64,000 bases of DNA from a bacterium. GTDB lineage: Bacteria > UBA8248. The position numbers and the translations under genes are program-made. Each line of letters begins with the position of its first letter. Position 1 is the first letter of the stretch. This document shows positions 3,088 to 62,330 of this stretch, piece after piece. The stretch covers positions 864,001 to 928,000 of the forward strand of contig OZ253442.1 in NCBI GenBank assembly GCA_965261085.1. Reading direction: 5' to 3'. A model generated the notes under the pieces. The model searched no databases. It was not told the DNA's origin and worked only from the letters and a program-made list of their open reading frames with translations.

Positions 3088-4080
3088 TTACAATGAGTTC
3101 ACAGGATACCTGGGCTTCTTTCCGCTCAAGACGCGGGCGATGTCCGCCCCCGCCCATGTGGCGATGGCTTCGAGGCACTCGTGCGTGGAGCCCGCCATGT
3201 GCGGCGTGAGAATGAGGTTGGGCGCACCGAAGATGGCGCTTTCTGGGTCGGGCGGTTCGCCTTCGAGCACGTCGAGGGCCGCCCCGCCGATTCGTCCACT
3301 CTTGAGCGCGCGCGCAAGCGCCGCTTCGTCCACCAGCGGGCCTCTCGCGGCGTTCACGAGAAACGCGCCTTTTTTCATTTTCGAGATCGCTTGCCTGTCG
3401 ATCAGGTGATGGGTTTTCGGCGTGAGCGGCGCGTGAAGTGTGATGAAATCGGCCCGGCCCAGGAGGGTGTCGTATCGCGTGGGCCTCGCACCGCGCGCCT
3501 TGATCTCCTCGCTCTTGAGGCCCGGGTCGTGGGCGAGGACCTTCATGCCCATCGCGAGCGCCATTTTCGTGAGCCGGCTCCCCACCTGCCCGATGCCGAT
3601 TAAGCCCAGCGTTTTCCCTTTGAGTTCCACTCCCGTGTGGCGCGCCTCGCCCCATACCCGTTCCGCGCCCACGCGGGAGGCCGCCTGGGGGATGCGTCTG
3701 GCTAAGGAGAGAATCAAGCCGAGAGTCAGTTCGGCCACGGCGTTCGCGTTCGCACCCGGCGTGTTGGTGACGAGTACGCCGCGTTGCGTGCAGGCCGCCA
3801 CGTCGACCTGATCCACGCCCGCGCCGTGTACGGCAACGACGCGCAGGTCCGGCAGCAGGTCGAGCAAAGAGGCGGCTATGTAGCCCGGACGCAGTAGAAT
3901 CCCTTCCGCGCCATTTAGTTTCTCGGCGAAGAGGACCTCTTCTTCTTCGGTCAGGGGTCTAAAGGGCAGCGCTACGGCGCGAACCGGCGCGACGCCGGCC
4001 AACGCCCTTTTCACGGGCTCCATGGCGACTGGAAAATCGGATGTGGAGGTGACGGCGGCCCACCGTTTTCTGAAAGGCAT
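3088..4080 (-). CDS. D-isomer-specific 2-hydroxyacid dehydrogenase (SerA-like)
   Basis: GKTLGLIGIGQVG Rossmann motif, NAARGPLVDE, LDVLEGEP, TPHMAG. Confidence 0.9.
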   Translation of the reverse strand: MPFRKRWAAVTSTSDFPVAMEPVKRALAGVAPVRAVALPFRPLTEEEEVLFAEKLNGAEGILLRPGYIAASLLDLLPDLRVVAVHGAGVDQVDVAACTQRGVLVTNTPGANANAVAELTLGLILSLARRIPQAASRVGAERVWGEARHTGVELKGKTLGLIGIGQVGSRLTKMALAMGMKVLAHDPGLKSEEIKARGARPTRYDTLLGRADFITLHAPLTPKTHHLIDRQAISKMKKGAFLVNAARGPLVDEAALARALKSGRIGGAALDVLEGEPPDPESAIFGAPNLILTPHMAGSTHECLEAIATWAGADIARVLSGKKPRYPVNSL

Positions 4081-4088
4081 CAGGCGAG

Positions 4089-5750
4089 CTACATGTCGAC
4101 GACGGAGAATTCGCCATCATAGTTGTATTCGGCTCTGGCCTTTTGAACGGAAAGCAGTCCCTCTTGCAAGTCGTGTTCGATGGAGTAGAAGGAGCGGTCC
4201 TTCGGATCGCCGTAACCCCCCCCGCTCGGCACTTCGAGCACGAGCCTGTCGCTTTGGTTCATCACCCATTGACGCTTGGGGTTGATGGGGCGTCCGTTCA
4301 GGGTCACCTTGCCGACGCGCCCGTTTTTCCCGCCGAACAACCCATAGGCGGGGTGCCGGGTTCGCTCGCTCATGAACGTGAGGAGGATAGGTCCGTCGGA
4401 CAGCGATTTCACGATGACCTGCTGGCCGTTTCCACCGGCGTATTTGCCCGCGCCGCCGCTGTCTCTGATGGACGCTTTTCTCTCCACCAGCAAGGGTACA
4501 AGATGCTCGAGGATTTCGATGGGTGTATTCGACGTGTTCGAAGGGAAATCGAGACATACGCGCCCATCGTGCCTGTCCGTCGCGCCTTGTCCTCCGTGCA
4601 GGAAGAAGTTGCCGGCGAAGTGCCTGTTTTCCTTTGTGATGCCTGCCGCGTTGATGGCCCACGTGGGGCTGCCGCTGGCCGCCTGCACGAGGTTGGGAAC
4701 CGCTTTGCACAGCGCGCCGAAAATGGCCGAGGGAATGAAGTGTCCCACCATGGAGCGGCCGTTCACGGGGGCCGGATAACGGGGATTCAGTATGCTGCCC
4801 TCGGGGGCCGATACCGTCACGGGCCGGAAGTTGCCCTCGTTGTTGGGAATCTGCGGACAGAACAGGCATTTGAGCGAATAGGCGGAATAGGAATAGACAT
4901 AGTTCAGAACGGCGTTCAGGCCGCGGTCGACCTGTGGGGATGAGCCCGTGTAATCCACCAGAATGCTGCTGCCGCGTACCTTGACCTCCACGCGGATGAC
5001 GAGCGGCTCATCGTACCCGTCGGTGGATACCTGAAAGCGGTATTCCCCGTCTTCCACTTTCTTGATGGCCTCGCGCATCGCGTTTTCAGAACGCTGGAAG
5101 ATTGTGGTGGCCGGTGCCTCGATGTCGGCGAGTTTGTACTCTTCGAGCATCTCGCCGATGCGCTGGGCGGCGAGTCTTCCGGCGGACATATGGGAGATCA
5201 TGTCTCCCTCCACCTGGTTCGGCACGCGCACGTTTTTTCTGATAATGCGCAGAATATCCTCGTTGATCTGGCCCGCCGACATGTACTTGCAGGGCGGGAG
5301 CTGGAGGCCTTCTTCGTAAATCTCGCGCACCTCGGGGGATCGCAGTTTTCCCCCCATGTCCGTTACCTGGGTGGTGATGCCGATGATGGCGACCAGCTTC
5401 GATTTGTAGAACACCGGTGTGAGAGAAGTGAGGTCTTGAAGATGACCGGTTCCCATCCACGGGTCGTTCGTGAGGATGAGGTCATCCGGCTTGAGGGTTT
5501 CCTGCGGGAATATCTGCAGAAGTTTTTTGGCTGTAATCGGCAATGCGCCCACGAAGCTGGGCATGGTGGACCTGGCCTGGGCGATGGACTGTCCGTTGGG
5601 ATTCAGTATGATGACGGCGAAATTTCTCGATTCGCGTATGGTCGTGGAAAAAGCGGTGCGGACAATCTCGGTGGCCGCTTCCTCGGCGATGGCGATGAAG
5701 CGGTTCCAGAGGACTTCCAAGGTAATTGAATCGATACCCTTGCGGGCCAT
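4089..5750 (-). CDS. hydantoinase B/oxoprolinase family protein
   Basis: RTAFSTTIRES, NDPWMGTGHLQD, DSGGAGKYAGG, SGGGYGDP motifs. Confidence 0.9.
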   Translation of the reverse strand: MARKGIDSITLEVLWNRFIAIAEEAATEIVRTAFSTTIRESRNFAVIILNPNGQSIAQARSTMPSFVGALPITAKKLLQIFPQETLKPDDLILTNDPWMGTGHLQDLTSLTPVFYKSKLVAIIGITTQVTDMGGKLRSPEVREIYEEGLQLPPCKYMSAGQINEDILRIIRKNVRVPNQVEGDMISHMSAGRLAAQRIGEMLEEYKLADIEAPATTIFQRSENAMREAIKKVEDGEYRFQVSTDGYDEPLVIRVEVKVRGSSILVDYTGSSPQVDRGLNAVLNYVYSYSAYSLKCLFCPQIPNNEGNFRPVTVSAPEGSILNPRYPAPVNGRSMVGHFIPSAIFGALCKAVPNLVQAASGSPTWAINAAGITKENRHFAGNFFLHGGQGATDRHDGRVCLDFPSNTSNTPIEILEHLVPLLVERKASIRDSGGAGKYAGGNGQQVIVKSLSDGPILLTFMSERTRHPAYGLFGGKNGRVGKVTLNGRPINPKRQWVMNQSDRLVLEVPSGGGYGDPKDRSFYSIEHDLQEGLLSVQKARAEYNYDGEFSVVDM

Positions 5751-10357: not shown

Positions 10358-11398
10358 ATGCCGATGGATTGGGATGAGTTCAAATCGAGAAGACAAGGTG
10401 GAGGAGGTGGCGGTGGAGGCGGCGGCATGCCGCAGTTCAAGCTGCCGCAGTTTCGTTTGCCGAATTTCAAGCTCCCGTCCGTGGCCATATTCGTGGTGGT
10501 GGTTCTGATTTGGCTGGCTTCGGGTATTTTCAGCGTGGGGCCGGACGAGCAGGGAATCGTTCTTCGGTTCGGCCGCATCGACCGGGTGGTGTCCTCGGGC
10601 TTGAACTATCATATGCCCTTCCCGATGGAGACCGCCTACACGCCGAAGGTAACGGAAGTGAAGCGCGTGGAAATCGGCTTCCGCACGATCGACCCTGGGC
10701 CCCCCGCCAGATATACGGACAAGCCCCACGAGTCGAGGATGTTGACCGGGGATGAGAACATGGTCGACGTCGACATGATCGTGCAGTACCGCATCGTGGA
10801 GGCGGACAAGTACCTCTTCAAGGTTCGCAATCCTAGGGAGACGGTGGTGCACGCCGCCGAAGCCGCCATCCGGCAAGTCGTGGGCAGCAAGCCCATCGAT
10901 GAGGCGCTTACCACCGGAAAGGGTGCGATTCAGCAAGAGACGATGGTGGAGATGCAAAAGATATTGGATCTGTACGAAACCGGTTTGCGCGTGGCGGCGG
11001 TGCAGCTTCAGGACGTGACGCCGCCCAAGGATGTCATTCACGCCTTCAAGGACGTGGCCAGCGCCCGTGAGGACAGAAACCGCCTCGTGAATGAGGCGCA
11101 AGGCTATCAAAACCAGGTGATACCGGAGACGCGCGGCAAGGTGGCCGCCGTTCTCAGACAAGCGGAAGCCTACCGCGAGACCAAGATTCGCCATGCGCGC
11201 GGAGATGCGAACCGCTTCCTCGCCACGCTCAAGGAATACAAAAAAGCGCCGGCCATTACGCGCGAGCGCCTGTATCTCGAAATGATGCAGGAGGTGATGC
11301 CGACGGTGGACAAAATAATTCTGGATCAGGGTAAATCCGGCGTGTTGCCGATACTCCCGCTGCGGGGAGGTGGAATAGAAGGGATAACGAAACGATGA
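10358..11398 (+). CDS. hflK: FtsH protease modulator HflK
   Basis: Gly-rich N-terminus, TM helix, SPFH domain (MLTGDENMVDV, AFKDVASARED, TRERLYLE). Confidence 0.93.
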   Translation: MPMDWDEFKSRRQGGGGGGGGGGMPQFKLPQFRLPNFKLPSVAIFVVVVLIWLASGIFSVGPDEQGIVLRFGRIDRVVSSGLNYHMPFPMETAYTPKVTEVKRVEIGFRTIDPGPPARYTDKPHESRMLTGDENMVDVDMIVQYRIVEADKYLFKVRNPRETVVHAAEAAIRQVVGSKPIDEALTTGKGAIQQETMVEMQKILDLYETGLRVAAVQLQDVTPPKDVIHAFKDVASAREDRNRLVNEAQGYQNQVIPETRGKVAAVLRQAEAYRETKIRHARGDANRFLATLKEYKKAPAITRERLYLEMMQEVMPTVDKIILDQGKSGVLPILPLRGGGIEGITKR

Positions 11399-12300
11399 GC
11401 GCCGAGGGAGCCATAAAATTGCCCAAAAAGACAATCGCGTTGTTGGTTTTGGTCCTGATTCTCATCTTCGCGCTCAATTCGTTTTTCTTTAAGGTTCGTG
11501 AAGACAGGCAAGTGGTCGTCACCCGGTTCGGCAAGCCAGTCCGCGTTTTGCGTGACGCGGGGCTTAACTACCGGATTCCATTCGTGGAGCAGCTCACGTA
11601 TTTCGACCGCCGCCTGCTGGAGTATGACTCCAACCCCACGGAGATCATCACCCAAGACAAGAAATCCCTCGTGGTGGATAACTTCTCGCGCTGGCGCATC
11701 ATCGACCCGCTGCAATTTCTGCGCACCGTCCGCAACGAACCCGGGGCGCAAGCGCGGCTCGACGACATTATCTACAGTGAATTGCGCCAAGAGCTTGGCC
11801 GCAAGGACTTGAGTGATATCGTGTCGAAAGACCGCGCGCAATTGATGGCCAAGGTCACCAAGGCGAGCGACAAGAAAGCGCGCGAATACGGCATCGAGAT
11901 AGTGGACGTTCGCTTGAAGCGAGCAGACTTGCCCACGGAGAACTTAAAGGCCATTTACGGGCGCATGCAGGCCGAGCGGCAAAGAATCGCCCGCCAGTAC
12001 CGCTCGGAAGGAAAAGAGCAGGCCCAGAAGATACGGGCGGAAACCAATCGTGAGCGTGACGTGCTCCTGGCGGTGGCTTATGAGAAAGAGCAAACCACCA
12101 AGGGCGAGGGCGACGCCAAGAGCATCGACATCAACGCCCAGGCGTTCGGGCAGGATCAGGAATTTTATGCGTTCCTGAAGAGCCTGGAGGTGTACCGGAG
12201 TTCTTTGAAAGAGAAGACGACGCTCCTGCTGCCCGCGGGCAGCGATTTCCTCAGATTCCTGCAAGGATCGAGGAACAGAAACCTGAAAAAATCCGAATAA
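11395..12300 (+). CDS. hflC: FtsH protease modulator HflC
   Basis: SPFH domain, DVRLKRADLP, RMQAER..A..YRSEG; ATGA overlap with hflK. Confidence 0.93.
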   Translation: MSAEGAIKLPKKTIALLVLVLILIFALNSFFFKVREDRQVVVTRFGKPVRVLRDAGLNYRIPFVEQLTYFDRRLLEYDSNPTEIITQDKKSLVVDNFSRWRIIDPLQFLRTVRNEPGAQARLDDIIYSELRQELGRKDLSDIVSKDRAQLMAKVTKASDKKAREYGIEIVDVRLKRADLPTENLKAIYGRMQAERQRIARQYRSEGKEQAQKIRAETNRERDVLLAVAYEKEQTTKGEGDAKSIDINAQAFGQDQEFYAFLKSLEVYRSSLKEKTTLLLPAGSDFLRFLQGSRNRNLKKSE

Positions 12301-12317
12301 ATCCGGTTCCGGAAAAG

Positions 12318-12352
12318 GAAAGCCCCCTCTCTCTTGGAGAGGGGGCTTTTTT
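12318..12352. terminator. bidirectional intrinsic terminator
   Basis: aaagccccctctc-tcttg-gagagggggctttttt hairpin with U tracts on both strands. Confidence 0.8.
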
Positions 12353-12612
12353 CGTGGTGCGTGGTTTCTGAAAAGCGCCTGATGCGAATTTTCCGGGCTT
12401 TTCAGAATTTTGGAGCCCCGTGGGGCCCCCTTGGTGGGATAGGGGCATCCTCTGGAGGGAAAGGGCAGGCGATGCCCGGAAGGATGATTCTGCCGCCCGT
12501 CATCATGAACAACGTCAACGACTTGCCTATGAAAATTGCTTTTCCAGCGGAGATGAAGGGCGGATGCGCCTACCTGAACTGATGGTGATATGAATGTTTG
12601 ATGCTACCCTTA
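12318..12612 (-). ncRNA. candidate ~300-nt structured ncRNA (unknown family)
   Basis: Between a TTGACA-N17-TACATT promoter and a terminator; several stems seen by eye; no convincing ORF. Confidence 0.4.
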
Positions 12613-12618
12613 CTCTTC

Positions 12619-12647
12619 AATGTAGGTCGGATTTTTCCTTATGTCAA
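12619..12647 (-). promoter_or_regulatory. sigma70-type promoter
   Basis: minus strand TTGACA (12647-12642), 17-bp spacer, TACATT (12624-12619). Confidence 0.7.
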
Positions 12648-12655
12648 GAAATTTC

Positions 12656-12701
12656 ACACAAAATGTAGTGTATTATTTTCTAGTTACACAATATATTGGG
12701 T
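12656..12701. promoter_or_regulatory. tandem NrdR-like boxes (pair 1)
   Basis: acacaaaatgtagtgt (12656) and acacaatatattgggt (12686) match acaCwAtATaTwGtgt; starts 30 bp apart. Confidence 0.7.
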
Positions 12702-12778
12702 TTGAAAGATGATCTTACCCACAGGTTATCCAGATGGGGAAAACCGAATTACTACATAAAAAGCAATCAGTTACGGGG

Positions 12779-12825
12779 ATTCTATATATAGTGTGGCGAT
12801 GAGTTGTGGATACAATATCTTGGGA
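12779..12825. promoter_or_regulatory. tandem NrdR-like boxes (pair 2)
   Basis: attctatatatagtgt (12779) and atacaatatcttggga (12810); starts 31 bp apart. Confidence 0.65.
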
Positions 12826-12976
12826 TAAGAAGAAATATTCTTTGCGGGCTTTCCCTGGATTCGTTTTCGGTCGATGAAGTCATTGAATCGGCTGCCGGAC
12901 GCATCCGAAGGCGCGCAAAACGAGCCGCCCTCCGGATGTTTTTACCGCACCACCGATCCAGGTGAGGAATCCCCCG

Positions 12977-13339
12977 TTATTCGTCTCTCAGGTAATTATC
13001 GCTCCCGTCGAGCCAGTCTTCACGGATGGGGCTGAAGATGTCGTAGTCTATCGCCGTTTCATCGCCCACGACTTCCACGGAGTGGGGGACGTGCGGTGGG
13101 ATGAGGAGCGTCTCTCCAGGCCCGATTTCCACGGATTCATCGTCGATGAAGAACCGGAGCCTTCCCTTGATGACGTGGGATATCTGCTCGTGCTCGTGGC
13201 TGTGCAGGGGCACCACGCAGCCGGGTTTGAGTTTGAGCCGGCAAAGCATCTCTTTTTCGCCCACCACCATCTTTCTCGATAAAGTGTCTGTCACGGTCTC
13301 CTCGGGCATCTCATCCCAACTGTATTTTTGGGCGCGCAT
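12977..13339 (-). CDS. cupin domain protein
   Basis: PLHSHEHEQ...IPPHVPHSV..DIFSPIREDW; RBS aggag. Confidence 0.9.
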   Translation of the reverse strand: MRAQKYSWDEMPEETVTDTLSRKMVVGEKEMLCRLKLKPGCVVPLHSHEHEQISHVIKGRLRFFIDDESVEIGPGETLLIPPHVPHSVEVVGDETAIDYDIFSPIREDWLDGSDNYLRDE

Positions 13340-13912: not shown

Positions 13913-14416
13913 TTGATTCCACGTATGACGGACAAGATGATCGACTCGGGCGATCCCTTCCCGAGCCTCGAGGTGGACCAGGTGGGAGGCGGCAAAATCT
14001 CCCTACCCGGCGATCTCGCGGACGATTGGGGAGTGGTTCTGTTCTACCGCGGACACTGGTGACCTTATTGCAAGCAGCAACTGACGGCTTTCGACAGGGC
14101 GGCGAAGCTCAAGGAAGAAGGCGTCAAGGTTGTTGCAGCCTCCGTGGACACGGAGGAGAACGCCAAGGGAACGATTGAGGAATGCGGAATCAACTTCCCT
14201 GTGGGCTATGGCTTGGACAACAAGCAGATTTCTGAACTCACCGGTTGTTTCTATGAAGAAAAACGCCAGATCATTCACAGCACGGGCTATGTCTTAAAGC
14301 CCGATGGAACGGTCGCCGTGGCCGTCTACAGCAGCGGGCCCATCGGCCGGCTCGTGTGGCAGGACGTATTGGGCTTGGTCCAGTTCCAAAAGAAGATGAT
14401 GGCGGCCCAAAGCTAG
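13913..14416 (+). CDS. AhpC/TSA peroxiredoxin-like selenoprotein (UxxC)
   Basis: One frame FYRGHW-TGA(14060-62)-PYC-KQQL... joins two ORF-track pieces; RBS aggaggg before TTG 13913 (alternative ATG 13925). Confidence 0.85.
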
Positions 14417-14573: not shown

Positions 14574-15098
14574 ATGCCGAAAGCGAACCGGTTCTTCCTG
14601 GACACCGGGGATGATTTCCCGAGCCTCGAGATCGCCAAAGTGGGAGGCGGAAAAATCAGCTTGCCCGATGACTTGCGGGGCTCGTGGGGCGTCGTCCTGT
14701 TCTACCGCAGCCATTGGTGACCCTACTGACTCGCCCAGATGGCGGGATTCTCCCGGGCGGGAGAAAGACTGGAAGCAGAGGGCATCAAGGTCGTGGCGGC
14801 GTCCACCGACCCGGAAGATGAGGCGGTGCAGTCCAACGAGGCGAGCAAGGTGAATTTTCCGGTGGGCCACAGCGTGGACCCCGCCTATATATCCGAGATG
14901 ACGGGCGCTTTCTACGCCCCTGAAGCGGGCGAGAAGCCGAGGCCGTTTCTTCACGCCACCAACTTTCTGCTCTCACCCGACGGCAAGGTGAACATCTCGC
15001 TTTATAGTTCGGGTCCTCTGGGTCGTCTCGTCTGGCAGGACGTCATCCAGGCCGTGCAGTTCAGGAAAAAGCGCATGGCGGCCCAGGCGCAGCAGTAG
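14574..15098 (+). CDS. AhpC/TSA peroxiredoxin-like selenoprotein (UxxU)
   Basis: MPKANRFFLDTGDDFPSL...FYRSHW-TGA(14718)-PY-TGA(14727)-LAQMAGF...; colinear with the upstream paralog on both sides of the TGAs. Confidence 0.82.
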
Positions 15099-19019: not shown

Positions 19020-19111
19020 GGAGAGGTGGCCGAGTCCGGTTTAAGGCGGCAGACTCGAAATCTGTTGTGCAGGTAACTGCACCGGGGGTTCGAATCCCTC
19101 CCTCTCCGCCA
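19020..19111 (+). tRNA. tRNA-Ser(CGA)
   Basis: GGAGAGG/CCTCTCC acceptor stem, anticodon CGA at 19056-58, long variable arm, GGTTCGAATCC, encoded CCA. Confidence 0.96.
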
Positions 19112-19378
19112 ATTTCATGCCGGCAGGCCGAGTGGAGACCCGGGTTTGTCGCAGCCTTATATATATCCGCAACCCCGGTTCCAGATTCCGCAGAGCAGTC
19201 CCTCCCTTCCCGGTTGGAACTGACCTCATCGGTCGGCAAACACTCCCTCTCCTCGGTCGTGTTTGACCCTCCATCTCCGCCAATTTCATGCCGGCAGGGG
19301 TCGGTGAACGCCCAAGCCTCTCGTAGCCTCTTTCGTATGGGCGAGCCCGGTGGAAACCTGAGTTTCTCGTAGCCTTCT
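19103..19378 (+). repeat. duplicated tRNA 3' end (25 bp) plus ~45-bp repeat units
   Basis: tctccgccaatttcatgccggcagg at 19103 and 19274; units of the form tttcat..ggc.g.cc.gtgg..acc.g.gtttctcgtagcc. Confidence 0.75.
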
Positions 19379-19576
19379 TGCAGCCAATAGTGAGGGTGCG
19401 CCAGGCATCGCCATCTCCAAGAAAGATAGGCCCGAAGGCGGGGGCGATGGCGCCGGGATTGATCTTGGCGGTGAAGTTTGACCCCTCTTTTCGTATCGAG
19501 CGGCAATTTTAGGAGGTTCTCGAGTAACGGAAGTCCCGACTTGTCCATATGACAACCAAATCGAGGAAGGTTACCT

Positions 19577-20572: not shown

Positions 20573-20635
20573 ACGTTGCTTTTCCTGGCGAGGGCTCTGC
20601 CCCACCGAATTTGAATTGGACAGACGTGTTGAATC

Positions 20636-20860
20636 GGGGTGGAGTCGGCAAGACAAGGGCGAAGCCCGAAGCCGCGCCGGTGGGGGGAGCTTTTGTTTTG
20701 TGGAACCATACCCCCCACGCATCAGCCTTCGCACAAACCGCTCGGCTTCTGCTACAATCCCTCCCTCTTCGGTCAGAATTAACCCTCAAGGGGGGAGTGT
20801 TTCTTGCTCTTTCATTGATCGCGTCAAATCCTCGTTCATCGGGGCTTTTTCAACAGCCCC
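20636..20860. mobile_element. REP/MITE-like element (family A) plus orphan MITE right end
   Basis: homologous to 58848-58993 and 62045-62214; tttttcaacagcccc end at ~20846-20860. Confidence 0.7.
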
Positions 20861-20971: not shown

Positions 20972-21976
20972 ATGAAGATCACCACCGCGATCACCCGCCT
21001 GCTGAACATCGACCATCCGATTCTGCTCGCCCCGATGGGCGGCGTTGCGGGCGGCGCGCTGGCCGGCGCGGTTTCGGCCGCCGGCGGGTTGGGCCTGATC
21101 GGCGCCGGCTACGCCGACCCTGCGTTCGGCTACGGCTCCGACGACTGGATTCGGAGCGAGTTCGACAAAGCGGGCGACCATCCAGTCGGTATCGGCTTCA
21201 TTACCTGGGCGCTGGACAAACGGTCCGGCGCGCTCGACGCAGCGCTGGAATGCCGGCCGCGGGCCGTCATGCTTTCTTTCGGTGATATCGCACCCTACGC
21301 TATGAAGATCCGGGCGGCCGGCGCGACGCTGATCTGCCAGGTCCAAACCCTGAAAGATGCCCGGGAGGCGGCGGCGAAGGGCGCCCAGATTATCGTCGCC
21401 CAGGGCACGGAGGCCGGGGGCCACGGGGCTGACCGATCCACGCTGCCACTTGTTCCGGCGGTCGCCGATGCGGTGGCGCCGATCCCTGTTGCCGCAGCCG
21501 GCGGCATTGCCGACGGGCGCGGACTGGCAGCCGCTCTCATACTGGGCGCCGAGGCCGTGCTGATTGGCACCCGTTTCTGGGCCACGCAGGAAGCGCTGGG
21601 TCATCCGAACCAGAAAGCGCTGATCGAGCGAACCGGCGGGGACCACACGCTGCGCACCAAGGCCTTCGACACGGCCCGGGACATCGCCTGGCCGGAACCT
21701 TACACCGGGCGCGCCATCCGCAACGCTTTTGCCGAAACCTGGCATGGCCGCGACGACGAATTGCGAGAGCGGGGCTCCTCGATGCGCGAACGCTTCTTCG
21801 CGGCCCAGCGCGGCGGGGATACGGAGGTGGCGGTAACATTCGCCGGTGAAGGCCTGGACCTGATAGCCGATCGCCCGTCCGCGGGCGCGCTGGTTGCGCG
21901 GATCGTCGACGAGGCTATCGAAGCGCTTACCAAGGCGCCGAGCCGTTATCTCACCCGCGGCCCGGCGGAAGGCTGA
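20972..21976 (+). CDS. nitronate monooxygenase family protein
   Basis: PILLAPMG, QGTEAGGH, AAGGIADGRG, GTRF..TQE. Confidence 0.9.
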   Translation: MKITTAITRLLNIDHPILLAPMGGVAGGALAGAVSAAGGLGLIGAGYADPAFGYGSDDWIRSEFDKAGDHPVGIGFITWALDKRSGALDAALECRPRAVMLSFGDIAPYAMKIRAAGATLICQVQTLKDAREAAAKGAQIIVAQGTEAGGHGADRSTLPLVPAVADAVAPIPVAAAGGIADGRGLAAALILGAEAVLIGTRFWATQEALGHPNQKALIERTGGDHTLRTKAFDTARDIAWPEPYTGRAIRNAFAETWHGRDDELRERGSSMRERFFAAQRGGDTEVAVTFAGEGLDLIADRPSAGALVARIVDEAIEALTKAPSRYLTRGPAEG

Positions 21977-22123: not shown

Positions 22124-23557
22124 CTATCTAAGAAGCTCGCTGAGTCGGCGTTCAAGATACTGGTCCACATCTAATCTGCATCCCTCCTCAATCATTTTAA
22201 GCATCCGCTCAATGTCTTCATCAACCAATGCAATAATGAAGCCTCGGTCGTCTCTTGCGGTGTCCCGGCAGCGCGCGATGAACCGCTCGCGATTGTCAAA
22301 GTTCCTGCCAATCAGAAGTCCAAGGCGGCCTCGTACTGGCGAAAACCGACCAGCAAGCTGGTCAAGTTCGGGATTCGCCATTTCCTGCAAATAGTTCTTG
22401 CATTCGACGTAAACCTTTGTAGCGGCGATTCTCACGTCTTGGCGACGGCGAAAGAAGAAGCCTGTATTACTGTTGTTCGTGTAGGCTATGTCGATCCTCT
22501 TCCGGCCCTCATGTATCTCAAGCTCTTTCTCGGGATAAATCAGGTTCGGATAGAAGATGAACTCCAAAGCTCCGATCATGAAGCTGTGAAAACGACTGGC
22601 GTCAAGATTGCCGCGTGTAATCTCGCTAAGCCGAGCAGTTAATGTACTTGCAAATATTTCCTCTACGAAACCTTCCTCCAGCTCAAAGTCTTTTAGCTCG
22701 GGCGGTACGCCTAGCAGGTTTTTGTAGCGTTCAAGGACTTCGGGATGGTCTTTGGAAAAATCGGCAAGAAAATGTTTTGAGGGCGGATACATCTTTTCAA
22801 GTGAAGTTTTTGTTACCCGCTGTTGTCCGTTCTTTAGTGTTTCCACCAAGGCAGTGCCTTGGGACAGATGTTCTGACTGAAGGAATTCCAAAACAAACTT
22901 CTTGTAATATTGCCGGTGTGAAAAGGCCAAGCTCCACCGCACGCTGGCCTTCGGAACCATGATTATCTTTCTGCCCTCGATGATCGGTAGTCGCACATAA
23001 CGATTTCCCCAATTTCGGTTGTACTCATTCCACAAATTTCCCGAAGCAACTTGCCCGCGTAGCTCGATGCCATGAAGATCACACTGGTACTGTGTGTATT
23101 CGATCAAATGTTCCCGAATGATGTTCGTAGTTATATCCGAAATCTTGTCTGCTCCGATTCGCGGTATGAAAAGCTCGCAGTCGGAAAGCTCTTCCAATTG
23201 CCCGGTTTCTGCGGCTCGACTTTCCCTCAGTTTATTAAAGAGGTCTTTTGCTTGAAGGCTCCCTATCCCGCGCCCTGAAGGGGTTTGACGGGAAAGGCCC
23301 AGAGAGGTCTCGTTCGGCTCATGAAGCTGGCTCAGAAGCATCTGGCCTCTAGGTTCATTCCCTACCTTGATGGCCTCAAGCACAGCTTCAAAGAAAGACA
23401 GTATCGCGTTGTGACAATTAACAGACCAATCATCAGATCGCTTGCTGAACACATAAGGATCAATGAAAAGTTGCGTGTCTGTATCCGTATCAACATCAAC
23501 GAAGTCCAGCTCAGGCTGGCTTTTGTCTATCTTGAAATGCTGTGACAGCTTAGGCAT
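22124..23557 (-). CDS. hypothetical protein with C-terminal PD-(D/E)xK restriction-endonuclease-like motif
   Basis: 477 aa, lower GC than flanks; E-x-x-EGRKRIDI...VECKNY...DQL motif. Confidence 0.7.
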   Translation of the reverse strand: MPKLSQHFKIDKSQPELDFVDVDTDTDTQLFIDPYVFSKRSDDWSVNCHNAILSFFEAVLEAIKVGNEPRGQMLLSQLHEPNETSLGLSRQTPSGRGIGSLQAKDLFNKLRESRAAETGQLEELSDCELFIPRIGADKISDITTNIIREHLIEYTQYQCDLHGIELRGQVASGNLWNEYNRNWGNRYVRLPIIEGRKIIMVPKASVRWSLAFSHRQYYKKFVLEFLQSEHLSQGTALVETLKNGQQRVTKTSLEKMYPPSKHFLADFSKDHPEVLERYKNLLGVPPELKDFELEEGFVEEIFASTLTARLSEITRGNLDASRFHSFMIGALEFIFYPNLIYPEKELEIHEGRKRIDIAYTNNSNTGFFFRRRQDVRIAATKVYVECKNYLQEMANPELDQLAGRFSPVRGRLGLLIGRNFDNRERFIARCRDTARDDRGFIIALVDEDIERMLKMIEEGCRLDVDQYLERRLSELLR

Positions 23558-23790: not shown

Positions 23791-24008
23791 GGTTGGGCCT
23801 GATTGGCGCAGGCTACGCCGACCCTGCGTTCGGCTACGGCTCCGACGACTGGATTCGGGGGAGTTCGACAAGGCGGGCGGCCAAGCTATCGGCATCGGCT
23901 TCATTGCCGGCGCGCTGGTCGAGCGGATCGTCGACGAGGCGATCGACGCGCTTAACGCGGCTCCGAGCCGTTATCTCACCCGCGGCCCGGCGGAAGGCTG
24001 ATGGACGG
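23791..24008 (+). pseudogene. internally deleted copy of the nitronate monooxygenase gene
   Basis: matches ~21087-21205 fused to ~21884-21983, including the stop codon; frameshifted, no start. Confidence 0.85.
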
Positions 24009-25269: not shown

Positions 25270-25670
25270 CATCCCTCCCTCCTTGGTCGGGATTGACCCC
25301 GCAATTGCCGCAGGCGTTCGAATCGGGTGCTCGCGTAGCCTTTCATCAGGACGGGCCCGGTGGGGGACCTGGGTTTCTCCTAACCTTTGATGCGGGCGGG
25401 CCTGGTGGATGCCCATATCTCTCGCAGCCCATTCGGCGCGTTTGGAGTTGATGAAACAATGAAACCTCTCGCAGTTTTTCATATGGGCAGGCCCGGTGGC
25501 GGGTTCACATATTTCGAAGCCTTTGATACGGGCAGTCCCGGTGGCGGACCTGGGTTTCTCCTAACCTTTGATACGGGCAGGCCCGGTGGCGGGTTTACAT
25601 ATTTCGAAGCCTTCGATAAGGACGAACCGGGCAGGGAGCGCGAGTTTCCCGAGGCCTCTCATGCGGGCGA
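25270..25670 (+). repeat. tandem array of ~45-bp imperfect repeats
   Basis: about 6-7 units, e.g. tttgatacgggcaggcccggtggcgggtttacatatttcgaagcc and tttgatacgggcagtcccggtggcggacctgggtttctcctaacc. Confidence 0.85.
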
Positions 25671-55620: not shown

Positions 55621-56190
55621 TTATCTTGCGAGCAGGACTCGCAAGGCTTCCGTCGATTCCCTGCTTTGCGCCACGGTTTCCCGTAGCGCTTCTCTAGACT
55701 CTCGGTCTTGTTCTCTGCCTGCCGCGATAAACTCTTTGAAAGCCGCCCGAGATTCCTTATTTTCTTCGATGAACTCTCTGAAAGCCGCCCTTGATTCCCC
55801 GTTCTCTTCGATGAGTTCTCTCAGGGCTTCCCTGGATTCACTGCGTTCTTTTCTGCCTTCCTCGATGAGTTCTCTCAGGGCTTCGCTGGATTCACTGCGT
55901 TCTTTTCTGCCTTCCTCGATGAGTTCCCTGAAACCATCCCTGAAAGCCGCCCTGGACTCCTTGCCTTCCTCGATTGACTCTCTAAGATTTGCCCTGGATT
56001 CCCTGCCTTCCTCAATGAGTTCTCTTAGCGCCACGGAATTCTCGTCCTGCTGTTTCGAGCGGACTCTGTTCCCCCAGAGCATCGCGGCGATTCCGCTGCC
56101 TATCAGGAGACATTGCAGCCCTCCGACACTGGCGACAACCCAGATATTCAATTCCATTAACGCTAATGTCGCTGCTTGAAATTCCGTCAT
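55621..56190 (-). CDS. membrane-anchored coiled-coil repeat protein
   Basis: N-terminal TM, then about 9 units of ES(R/S)xA(L/F)RE.IEE (14/18 aa); 54-bp near-identical DNA repeats. Confidence 0.7.
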   Translation of the reverse strand: MTEFQAATLALMELNIWVVASVGGLQCLLIGSGIAAMLWGNRVRSKQQDENSVALRELIEEGRESRANLRESIEEGKESRAAFRDGFRELIEEGRKERSESSEALRELIEEGRKERSESREALRELIEENGESRAAFREFIEENKESRAAFKEFIAAGREQDRESREALRETVAQSRESTEALRVLLAR

Positions 56191-58571: not shown

Positions 58572-58993
58572 CACTCCCCCTTGGAGGGGGTTGTTGAAAA
58601 AGCCCCCAAAGGAAAAATGCCTGCGGCGCATAATATCTCCCTCCCCCTGAGCAACTCGCCGCTCCGCCTCACCCTGAGTAGCGGCGAAGCCGCGTATCGA
58701 AGGGCGAAGTTCGCACCTGTGGGGGGAGACGCGCCCTCCCATCCTTCGATACGGCGCATGCGCGCCTACTCAGGATGAGGTCGATACGGTGGCCATGCAA
58801 GACGAGGGAAACGCGCTTGCTCCCTGGACCAGGTTTTTCAAAAACCCTTGGAGGGGGAGTCGGCAAGGTAAGGGCGAAGCCCGCAACCGCGCCGGTGGGG
58901 AGCAGGTTCTCCTCACTTGAAATCCATCCCCCCACCGCATCAGCCTTCGCCCACAGGGCTTGGCTTCTGCGACTCCCCCTCAAGGGGGGAGTG
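58572..58993. mobile_element. family-A REP/MITE interrupted by a TIR MITE (58588-58847) that holds a third palindrome (58667-58780)
   Basis: TIR gggttgttgaaaaa/tttttcaaaaaccc, flanking ttggag duplication; inner cctcaccctgagtag...ctactcaggatgagg. Confidence 0.75.
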
Positions 58994-59011
58994 AGAAAAA
59001 CCCAAGCATAG

Positions 59012-61944: not shown

Positions 61945-62330
61945 AAAAGCCCCATAAAACAGGAAATGGGTTTCTAAATCGACATACATTCATGAAATGA
62001 CTCCTCCCTTGAGGGTCATTGGCAACTGATGAAAGAGGAAGAACCACTCCCCCCTTGAGGGGGAGTCAGCAAGGCAAGGACGGAGTCCGCAGCCGCGCTG
62101 GTGGGGGGTGAATTTATTTTGTGGGGAAACCCATATTTTAGAACCATACCCCCCACCGACTCAGCCTTCGCACAAACCGCTCGGCTTCGTCGACTCCCCC
62201 TCAAGGGGGGAGTGGTTGTTGATCTCTCTCGTCGGTTGGCGAACAGCAATCGCTTCTTCATCAGTCGTGATTGACCTCCCCGGTCGGCTACATACGCCGA
62301 ATCACGAAATCAGGACTTTTTAACAGCTCC
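61933..62330. mobile_element. TIR MITE enclosing a family-A REP element (62045-62214)
   Basis: ggggctattgaaaaag ... ctttttaacagctcc; inner cactcccccttgaggggg...ccccctcaagggggg. Confidence 0.65.

Follow-up and report, generated by a model that had tools for sequence, protein, structure and literature searches.

Putative NrdR operators joined to predicted DnaA sites in a lineage-restricted regulatory element without a ribonucleotide reductase gene

Judged from its sequence and conservation, the region between hflC and a cupin gene in a bacterium of UBA8248, a lineage placed near Tectomicrobia (PMC10839748), is a real, lineage-restricted regulatory element that joins putative NrdR operators to predicted DnaA sites without a ribonucleotide reductase (RNR) gene. 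We are highly confident that the locus is real and functional. As to what it does, the reading that we favour, which is put forward tentatively, is that it is an NrdR-gated DnaA/IHF regulatory locus that would resemble datA and DARS without being a member of either class, and to which an NrdR-repressed non-coding RNA (ncRNA) is attached. The element lies in a stretch of 64 kb, the whole of which was analysed and is called the window below.

The region is the gap between two convergent genes, hflC (11395 to 12300, plus strand), which codes for an SPFH/Band 7 protein, and a cupin gene (12977 to 13339, minus strand). The initial annotation was right in saying that both flanking genes point inward and that there is no nrd gene in the window. 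Among the 55 ORFs of the window Pfam found transporters, hydrolases, and housekeeping genes but no RNR, reverse transcriptase, integrase, or Cas family, and tblastn with E. coli NrdA, NrdB, and NrdR, with a positive control that worked, gave no match in the 64-kb window or in 80 loci from relatives taken with 10-kb flanks. Several other features of the window were seen in passing. The 3' end of a tRNA-Ser(CGA) gene (19096 to 19126) is repeated 170 bp downstream (about 19266 to 19296) and resembles the scar of an integrated element. An intergenic element of 170 to 200 bp with terminal inverted repeats, which is MITE- or REP-like, is present in three copies (about 20630 to 20815, 58834 to 58998, and 62031 to 62228). 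There are intergenic 45-bp tandem repeats at 25477 to 25656, and 42/54-bp repeats at 55715 to 56031 inside an ORF of 193 aa that has no Pfam family. An ORF of 477 aa on the minus strand (22124 to 23557), with low GC3 and no Pfam family, lies between partly duplicated pieces of a nitronate monooxygenase gene (21087 to 21230 repeated at 23791 to 23933), which suggests an insertion. Two short ORFs, 14144 to 14416 and 14739 to 15098, are related to each other, as is the DNA upstream of them (13943 to 14070 and 14601 to 14728), and in both the similarity extends 5' of the called start; possibly these are redoxin-like genes that are read through an in-frame stop.

Relatives were collected with hflC as the anchor. 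A scan of genome contigs with HflC matched at least 599 stretches, of which at least 304 were confirmed, and the best 80 of these were examined. A homologous intergenic region was present in 16 of the 80 loci, which together with the window gave 17 aligned sequences; one of these, L004, ends within the intergenic region, and the whole conserved block is covered by 16 sequences including the window. The 16 loci that bear the region and the window form one clade in a tree of HflK and HflC (L031, which is without hflK, was left out), and within this clade identity to the window at fourfold-degenerate sites goes from 0.91 down to 0.57. Since the same arrangement is found in 16 separate genome records, misassembly is ruled out. 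Profile searches did not find a second copy of the region in 1.26 Mb. When the region and the RNA of the distant locus L021, which is described below, were compared by blastn with phage and plasmid collections, and the block with E. coli genomes, there were either no matches or short matches to AT-rich parts with E values of 0.01 or worse. A REP/REPIN-like repeat was considered and rejected, the GTAG-GCATCC motif count being at chance (8 against 6.4 expected).

Four NrdR-like 16-mers in two pairs, with spacings of 30 and 31 bp, had been recognized in the initial annotation. They start at 12656, 12686, 12779, and 12810, and the two pairs are 123 bp apart, start to start. The proximal pair (12656 to 12701, boxes 12656-12671 and 12686-12701) has an A-rich linker of 14 bp and is adjacent to the -35 sequence of a predicted promoter, as had been stated, although at a measured distance of 8 bp upstream and not 9 bp. 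The distal pair (12779 to 12825, boxes 12779-12794 and 12810-12825) has a linker of 15 bp. With a matrix made from the ten natural boxes printed in PMC13584703, these four boxes are the best four single sites in the 64-kb window, and each has all six of the positions described there as critical, namely, C4, A6, A8, T9, T11, and G13 of the 16 bp. The two pairs scored 33.7 and 29.5, whereas the highest score in 40 Markov-simulated windows was 15.5, and when the AT-rich stretch was shuffled two pairs were found in 0 of 5000 shuffles and one pair in 14 of 5000. Among 16 sequences the critical positions were kept in 382 of 384 cases, compared to 536 of 640 for the other box positions. The window and 14 clade loci share linkers of 14 and 15 bp, and in L015 only the distal pair is above the score threshold. 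NrdR is described as binding to pairs with linkers of 14-17 bp or 24-27 bp (PMC12051234), and the linkers in the window fall inside the shorter range. These results support the view that the putative NrdR operators are paired and genuine-looking. NrdR boxes are reportedly the subject of an original survey by Rodionov and Gelfand. Weak NrdR-like pairs were also found in the distant loci L036 and L064. In L064, a Nitrospirota record, a perfect NrdR-like box with a weak partner was seen by eye at 19452 to 19498, upstream of the start of an SMC-like ORF.

The initial annotation overlooked DnaA boxes and an IHF-like site that are bracketed by its NrdR boxes, in a block that sits in an island of 35% GC. 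A double DnaA box with a spacing of 2 bp (12715 to 12734, plus strand) lies between the two NrdR pairs. It is the best in the 64 kb and is close to TTATCCACA, which is the E. coli consensus and may differ from that of this lineage. A double box with three or fewer mismatches was found in 15 of the 15 fully covered clade loci and in 4 of the 65 other loci. E. coli DnaA is described as preferring box pairs that are spaced by 2-3 bp, including those at nrdA, DARS, and oriC (PMC11317965). A weak and variable DnaA-like 9-mer that abuts the double box (12735 to 12743, minus strand) is doubtful. The distal DnaA box (12805 to 12813, minus strand) is in the linker of the distal NrdR pair and overlaps NrdR box 4 by 4 bp; it varies at the N position only (14 of 16 alike), and it has a weak tandem partner at 12794 to 12802. 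Altogether the block has only three good DnaA boxes, and most of their variation falls on position 5 (N) and on the positions that are mismatched. Between the double box and the distal box is an IHF-like 13-mer with an upstream A-tract (12761 to 12773, plus strand). It has one mismatch to WATCAANNNNTTR and, because this mismatch is invariant in 16 of 16 sequences, the identity of the binding protein is uncertain; moreover, the window has 19 matches to WATCAANNNNTTR with one mismatch or fewer, and 2 of these have an A/T-rich flank.

The predicted promoter, TTGACA-17-TACATT of the sigma-70 type, is at 12619 to 12647 on the minus strand, where the initial annotation had proposed it. A lone match of this quality is at chance level (0.9 expected), but the promoter is kept in 14 of the 17 aligned sequences, and in these same 14 the -35 sequence is exact and T1, A2, and T6 of the -10 sequence are retained. 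It has been lost in L011, L013, and L015. At the other end, the terminator that had been placed at about 12318 is an intrinsic hairpin at 12319 to 12352 which is probably bidirectional, with a U-tract that is strong on the hflC strand and weaker on the minus strand; all 17 aligned sequences have a hairpin here. The predicted transcript, with its start deduced from the promoter, runs on the minus strand over 12313 to 12612 and is about 290-300 nt long. No conserved plus-strand or sigma-54 promoter was seen by eye in the block, nor did a sigma-70 scan of seven loci find anything conserved.

The block of 170 bp that holds the NrdR and DnaA sites (12656 to 12826) is more conserved than the RNA. 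In L011, L013, and L015 the -35 and -10 sequences and most of the RNA are lost, and a conserved replacement promoter was not found in them. These three loci, whose identity to the window at fourfold-degenerate sites is 0.57-0.67, keep 70 of 72 NrdR key positions and 79 of 81 DnaA positions (p 2e-7 to 8e-4 per locus and motif set). Between L011 and L013/L015 identity is 0.67-0.71 in the block but 0.07-0.19 in the promoter and RNA, compared to 0.57-0.58 at fourfold-degenerate sites. Between L013 and L015, on the other hand, identity in the block (0.70) is no higher than that at fourfold-degenerate sites (0.72). The spacer on the cupin side serves as an internal control and decays to 0.35-0.61 identity in 12 of the 15 loci in which it is covered. 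Because these three of the 17 sequences have retained the block after losing the promoter and most of the RNA, its function is probably exerted as DNA and not solely as the operator of the RNA. The three loci form one subclade (support 0.84) and T11 of box 1 is lost in two of them, and thus the loss of the promoter may have been a single event that was followed by slow decay.

The initial annotation had proposed that the locus specifies an undescribed, nucleotide-pool-responsive ncRNA. Paired operators, a conserved promoter, and a transcript region that appears to be under selection and is outside Rfam are in keeping with this proposal. NrdR control of the RNA is not the whole function, however, since the RNA is less conserved than the block, which persists where both promoter and RNA have been lost. 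The core of the RNA, about 175 nt (12437 to 12609, minus strand), is nearly indel-free, and 13 sequences have it in full, at 174-177 nt and with few indels; the RNA is eroded in the other 4 of the 17. The 3' part of the RNA is 84-94% identical in 10 loci compared to 73-77% at fourfold-degenerate sites (p 7e-6 to 0.04 each, the loci being non-independent), while the middle part drops to 53-59% identity in four loci. From this pattern of conservation we infer that the RNA core is under selection in 13 genomes. Rfam at the gathering threshold gave only a tRNA in the window, and with E values of up to 10 it gave for the region only terminator-like scraps, the best with an E value of 0.04 or worse. 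The Rfam scan that the initial annotation had suggested thus matched no known RNA family. A cobalamin riboswitch, tmRNA, SRP RNA, and an HDV-like ribozyme were considered and had no support from Rfam or ARAGORN.

Four helices were placed in the core, all on the minus strand. P1 pairs 12609-12604 with 12442-12437. P2, a stem already named in the initial annotation, pairs 12574-12568 with 12470-12464, has 98.9% of cells paired, and shows one two-sided change. P3, of 7 bp, pairs 12477-12471 with 12449-12443, has 100% of cells paired, and crosses P2. P4 pairs 12563-12552 with 12504-12493 and has 84.5% of cells paired, being partly broken in 4 of 13 sequences. Since P3 is fully paired and crosses P2, the core would be either a pseudoknot or a switch between two folds, and a pseudoknot in the core is possible. 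The core also has a nearly invariant pyrimidine tract (12463-12450). Downstream of the core on the same strand are a conserved 8-bp G/C hairpin (12412 to 12430) with 97% of cells paired and zero two-sided changes, and an 11-bp hairpin (12366 to 12407) whose loop and sequence change freely, which has one pair with a two-sided change in 5 of 12 sequences, and which is largely deleted in L004. Three conserved helices of 7 bp or more were found against a mean of 0.04, exceeding all of 400 column shuffles, but column shuffling breaks runs of G and C and so overstates this significance. Overall 94.5% of cells are paired, but only 3 of 39 pairs have a two-sided change. A comparison of the sequences downstream of hflC in relatives, which had also been suggested, thus brought out conservation but not significant covariation, the score being reached by 112 of 500 shuffles. 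The word 'structured' in the initial annotation is apt for the window as far as its four named stems go, all of which are present, and the fold of the 302-nt transcript, terminator and 3' hairpins included, has a z of -4.3; the 175-nt core alone, however, folds weakly, with a z of -0.5 to -2.6 in the 13 sequences compared to -6.3 for E. coli 6S RNA. A covariance model found the deleted form in L012 at 39.7 bits and nothing further in 1.26 Mb; its matches to the 13 core sequences are circular because it was built from them.

Outside the clade, four syntenic loci, L014, L017, L018, and L019, are without the block at this place. Of the other outgroup loci, L016 has undergone rearrangement and L020 breaks off 181 bp beyond hflC. 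L021 is an AT-rich distant relative in which orphan ORFs are followed by an NrdR pair. An orphan ORF of about 220 aa, which is lipoprotein-like by eye, was observed on the opposite strand just 3' of hflC in L014, L017, L018, L019, and L021, the last having two. It has ten homologs and no Pfam family, and it is absent at this place from the clade that bears the block. In L021 an NrdR pair, a promoter, and an RNA take up 3946-4207 on the minus strand. The pair has a spacing of 32 bp, lies 6 bp from TTGACA-17-TAAATT, and has a score that was reached in 0 of 500 simulations. The RNA is 165 nt long with a predicted four-way junction (z -6.2) and is 46% GC in a locus of 32% GC; it has no Rfam match, and nhmmer, a covariance model, and pairwise alignment found no similarity between it and the RNA of the clade. 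We regard it as a candidate for a second new RNA. DnaA sites are absent from L021, and a locus with an NrdR pair and an RNA but without them points to the RNA as the earlier of the two modules. Either an NrdR-controlled RNA may have been present here before the DnaA block was, or such an RNA may have arisen twice.

Known loci outside oriC that combine DnaA boxes with IHF are datA and DARS2 (PMC10380432), and they provide the precedent for the reading that we favour. Like datA, the element is intergenic, about 200 bp long, and off-origin, and it has predicted DnaA boxes on both sides of one IHF-like site. The boxes that flank the IHF site are co-directional in datA of E. coli but convergent here. 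Other differences are that only the present element has NrdR operators and that its lineage is far from Gammaproteobacteria. With DARS1 and DARS2 it shares tandem DnaA boxes 2-3 bp apart, and its IHF-like site would correspond to the IHF site of DARS2. The head-to-head core of DARS, as described in PMC6868365, has boxes I and II in opposite orientation 5 bp apart together with box III, whereas no opposite box at 5 bp was found here and NrdR operators are present. Since it has neither this core nor the orientation of datA, the element belongs to neither class, although it may work in a similar way.

In the reading that we favour there would be two modules, a DNA element of 170 bp that binds DnaA and an IHF-type bending protein and is flanked by two NrdR operators, and an attached RNA. 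Most likely the element would set the amount of free or active DnaA, which in E. coli is also the role of datA, by IHF-dependent hydrolysis of DnaA-ATP, and of DARS, and would be gated by the nucleotide sensor. NrdR is described as binding DNA in its dATP-loaded state, which corresponds to high dNTP levels (PMC13584703). At high dNTPs, dATP-NrdR would then occupy both pairs, so that the distal DnaA box would be covered and the promoter repressed. At low dNTPs NrdR would leave, a DnaA-IHF complex would form and hold or inactivate DnaA, and the attached RNA would be made by transcription directed away from the block. Negative supercoiling has been reported to favour IHF binding at datA (PMC10380432). 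Protein binding at this locus, mutual exclusion of NrdR and DnaA, the direction of the effect on DnaA, and a role for the RNA are all proposals of ours. In favour of the proposal are the near-complete retention of the critical NrdR positions, DnaA boxes that vary mainly at N, the rank of the double box in the window, the survival of the motifs in the three promoter-less loci, and the overlap of the distal DnaA box with NrdR box 4. The points against it are the orientation of the boxes and the missing DARS core, the small number of good DnaA boxes, the invariant mismatch in an IHF-like site whose consensus is matched as well at many other places in the window, the decay of box 1 within the promoter-less subclade together with a block identity between L013 and L015 that is not above that of fourfold-degenerate sites, the four syntenic outgroups without the element, and L021 with its NrdR pair and RNA but no DnaA sites.

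The main rival explanation, which we consider rather unlikely, is that the block is a promoter of the nrdA type, repressed by NrdR and modulated by DnaA and IHF, whose product would be an ncRNA responsive to dNTPs and the cell cycle and acting, for example, by pairing of the pyrimidine tract with ribosome-binding sites. At E. coli nrdA a double DnaA box does lie 69 bp from an NrdR pair, and here too a double box is near an NrdR pair. In Listeria monocytogenes nrdAB there are two NrdR pairs which are stated to be 113 bp apart (PMC13584703), and here there are also two, at 123 bp. The retention of the promoter in most of the clade, the identity of the 3' part of the RNA above that of fourfold-degenerate sites, the three conserved helices, and the order of NrdR pair, promoter, and structured RNA that is repeated in L021 all fit such a promoter. 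However, RNR promoters have an RNR operon downstream, whereas here there are a terminator, convergent hflC, and a predicted non-coding output. Unlike at E. coli nrdA, the double DnaA box faces away from the promoter and is on the far side of the NrdR pair. The block also persists where the promoter and RNA are gone. The weak fold of the core, its non-significant covariation, and the dissimilarity of the RNA in L021 also speak against this explanation.

It is improbable that the element is a chromosomal or second origin that has acquired NrdR operators and in which the outward-facing promoter assists unwinding. DnaA boxes, an IHF-like site, and AT-rich DNA in a GC-poor island would suit an origin, as would a function at the DNA level, which the promoter-less lineages imply; a DnaA box pair, an IHF-like site, and AT-rich surroundings are what the element has in common with an oriC that has a basal unwinding system (BUS). 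What it is without are conserved DnaA-trios, a skew switch, and dnaA, dnaN, or gyrB as neighbours. The BUS rule is given as three or more DnaA-trios no farther than 16 bp from a DnaA box, and DnaA-trios are stated to be missing in 15% of genomes (PMC8287927). Such an arrangement was missing from 11 of the 16 sequences, and in the other 5 the matches were scattered and had no shared place. The strand effect at fourfold-degenerate sites had the same sign on both sides, for GC +0.10 +/- 0.03 on the left, where the flank is 12 kb, and +0.04 +/- 0.01 on the right, and for TA +0.13 on both sides of the element. Searches for dnaA, dnaN, recF, and gyrB, with a positive control that worked, found none in the window or in the 80 loci. 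As far as can be seen, strand skew and the unwinding rule argue against oriC.

That the locus is what is left of the promoter and 5' leader of an nrd operon, orphaned and decaying after the operon moved or was lost, is very improbable. In E. coli and P. aeruginosa, according to the parts of bioRxiv 10.1101/2025.03.28.645925 that bear on this, paired NrdR boxes are found only at RNR operons and the targets other than RNR have single, doubtful boxes; long nrdA leaders also exist (PMC12528414), and erosion of the RNA in some sequences would be expected of a relic. The pattern of conservation makes a relic unlikely, because selection is specific to the motifs across lineages as far apart as those in this clade while the adjacent spacer decays, and the same arrangement recurs in separate genome records. 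A protein remnant was not found in either of the open frames, which is weak evidence.

The transcript could also be a divergent 6S or Ms1-like RNA that binds RNA polymerase and is under replication control, but this is exceedingly improbable. The length of the core, 174-177 nt, is close to that of 6S RNA and some sequences fold into a rod with a bulge, as in the description of 6S RNA in PMC8414754; in the window the minimum-energy fold of the core is rod-shaped, with a 5' bulge of 25 nt and, opposite it, a small hairpin. Against this, RF00013 was unlisted even at an E value of 10 although E. coli 6S RNA scores 139.8 bits, alignment to E. coli 6S RNA was no better than that of shuffles (170 of 200 were as good), the closing stem is only 6-9 bp with weak folding, and zapA/fau synteny is absent at the locus. 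The least probable explanation of all is that the transcript is an mRNA for a peptide of 30-50 residues, an option that the initial annotation had left standing beside its view, which agrees with our results, that the transcript has no credible ORF: a minus-strand frame, PGIACPF...GPHGAP, runs without a stop for 23 codons in all 12 sequences, with variation of 3/5/10 by codon position, but it has 7 synonymous versus 11 non-synonymous codon types with an equally good antisense frame, is broken by upstream stops and 1-nt indels, and has no shared start codon and no evident ribosome-binding site. No reading frame on either strand keeps a start, a length, and a synonymous bias, and searches for families, structures, and longer homologs of the small ORFs were blank, which is weak evidence.

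No paper that describes regulation of an ncRNA by NrdR, or NrdR operators at a locus of DnaA and IHF sites, was found in a literature search that took in few of the subscription journals and no supplementary box tables. In a genetic study of B. subtilis the effect of NrdR was placed at elongation (PMC9825946). The bolder claim, that NrdR acts directly on initiation, with a dATP-switched DnaA/IHF site outside Gammaproteobacteria serving as a dNTP checkpoint on DnaA and also driving an undescribed, possibly pseudoknotted ncRNA, is in our opinion possible but doubtful; a link between nucleotide pools and the initiation of replication, as the arrangement of the sites suggests, is plausible. Since the element is only 170 bp and NrdR proteins are described as able to bind boxes from other species (PMC13584703), these proposals are testable in vitro and in E. 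coli without culturing the host. Two conserved NrdR pairs at a locus without an RNR gene would widen the NrdR regulon, and if NrdR gates the DnaA/IHF site then nucleotide supply would feed straight into the control of initiation.
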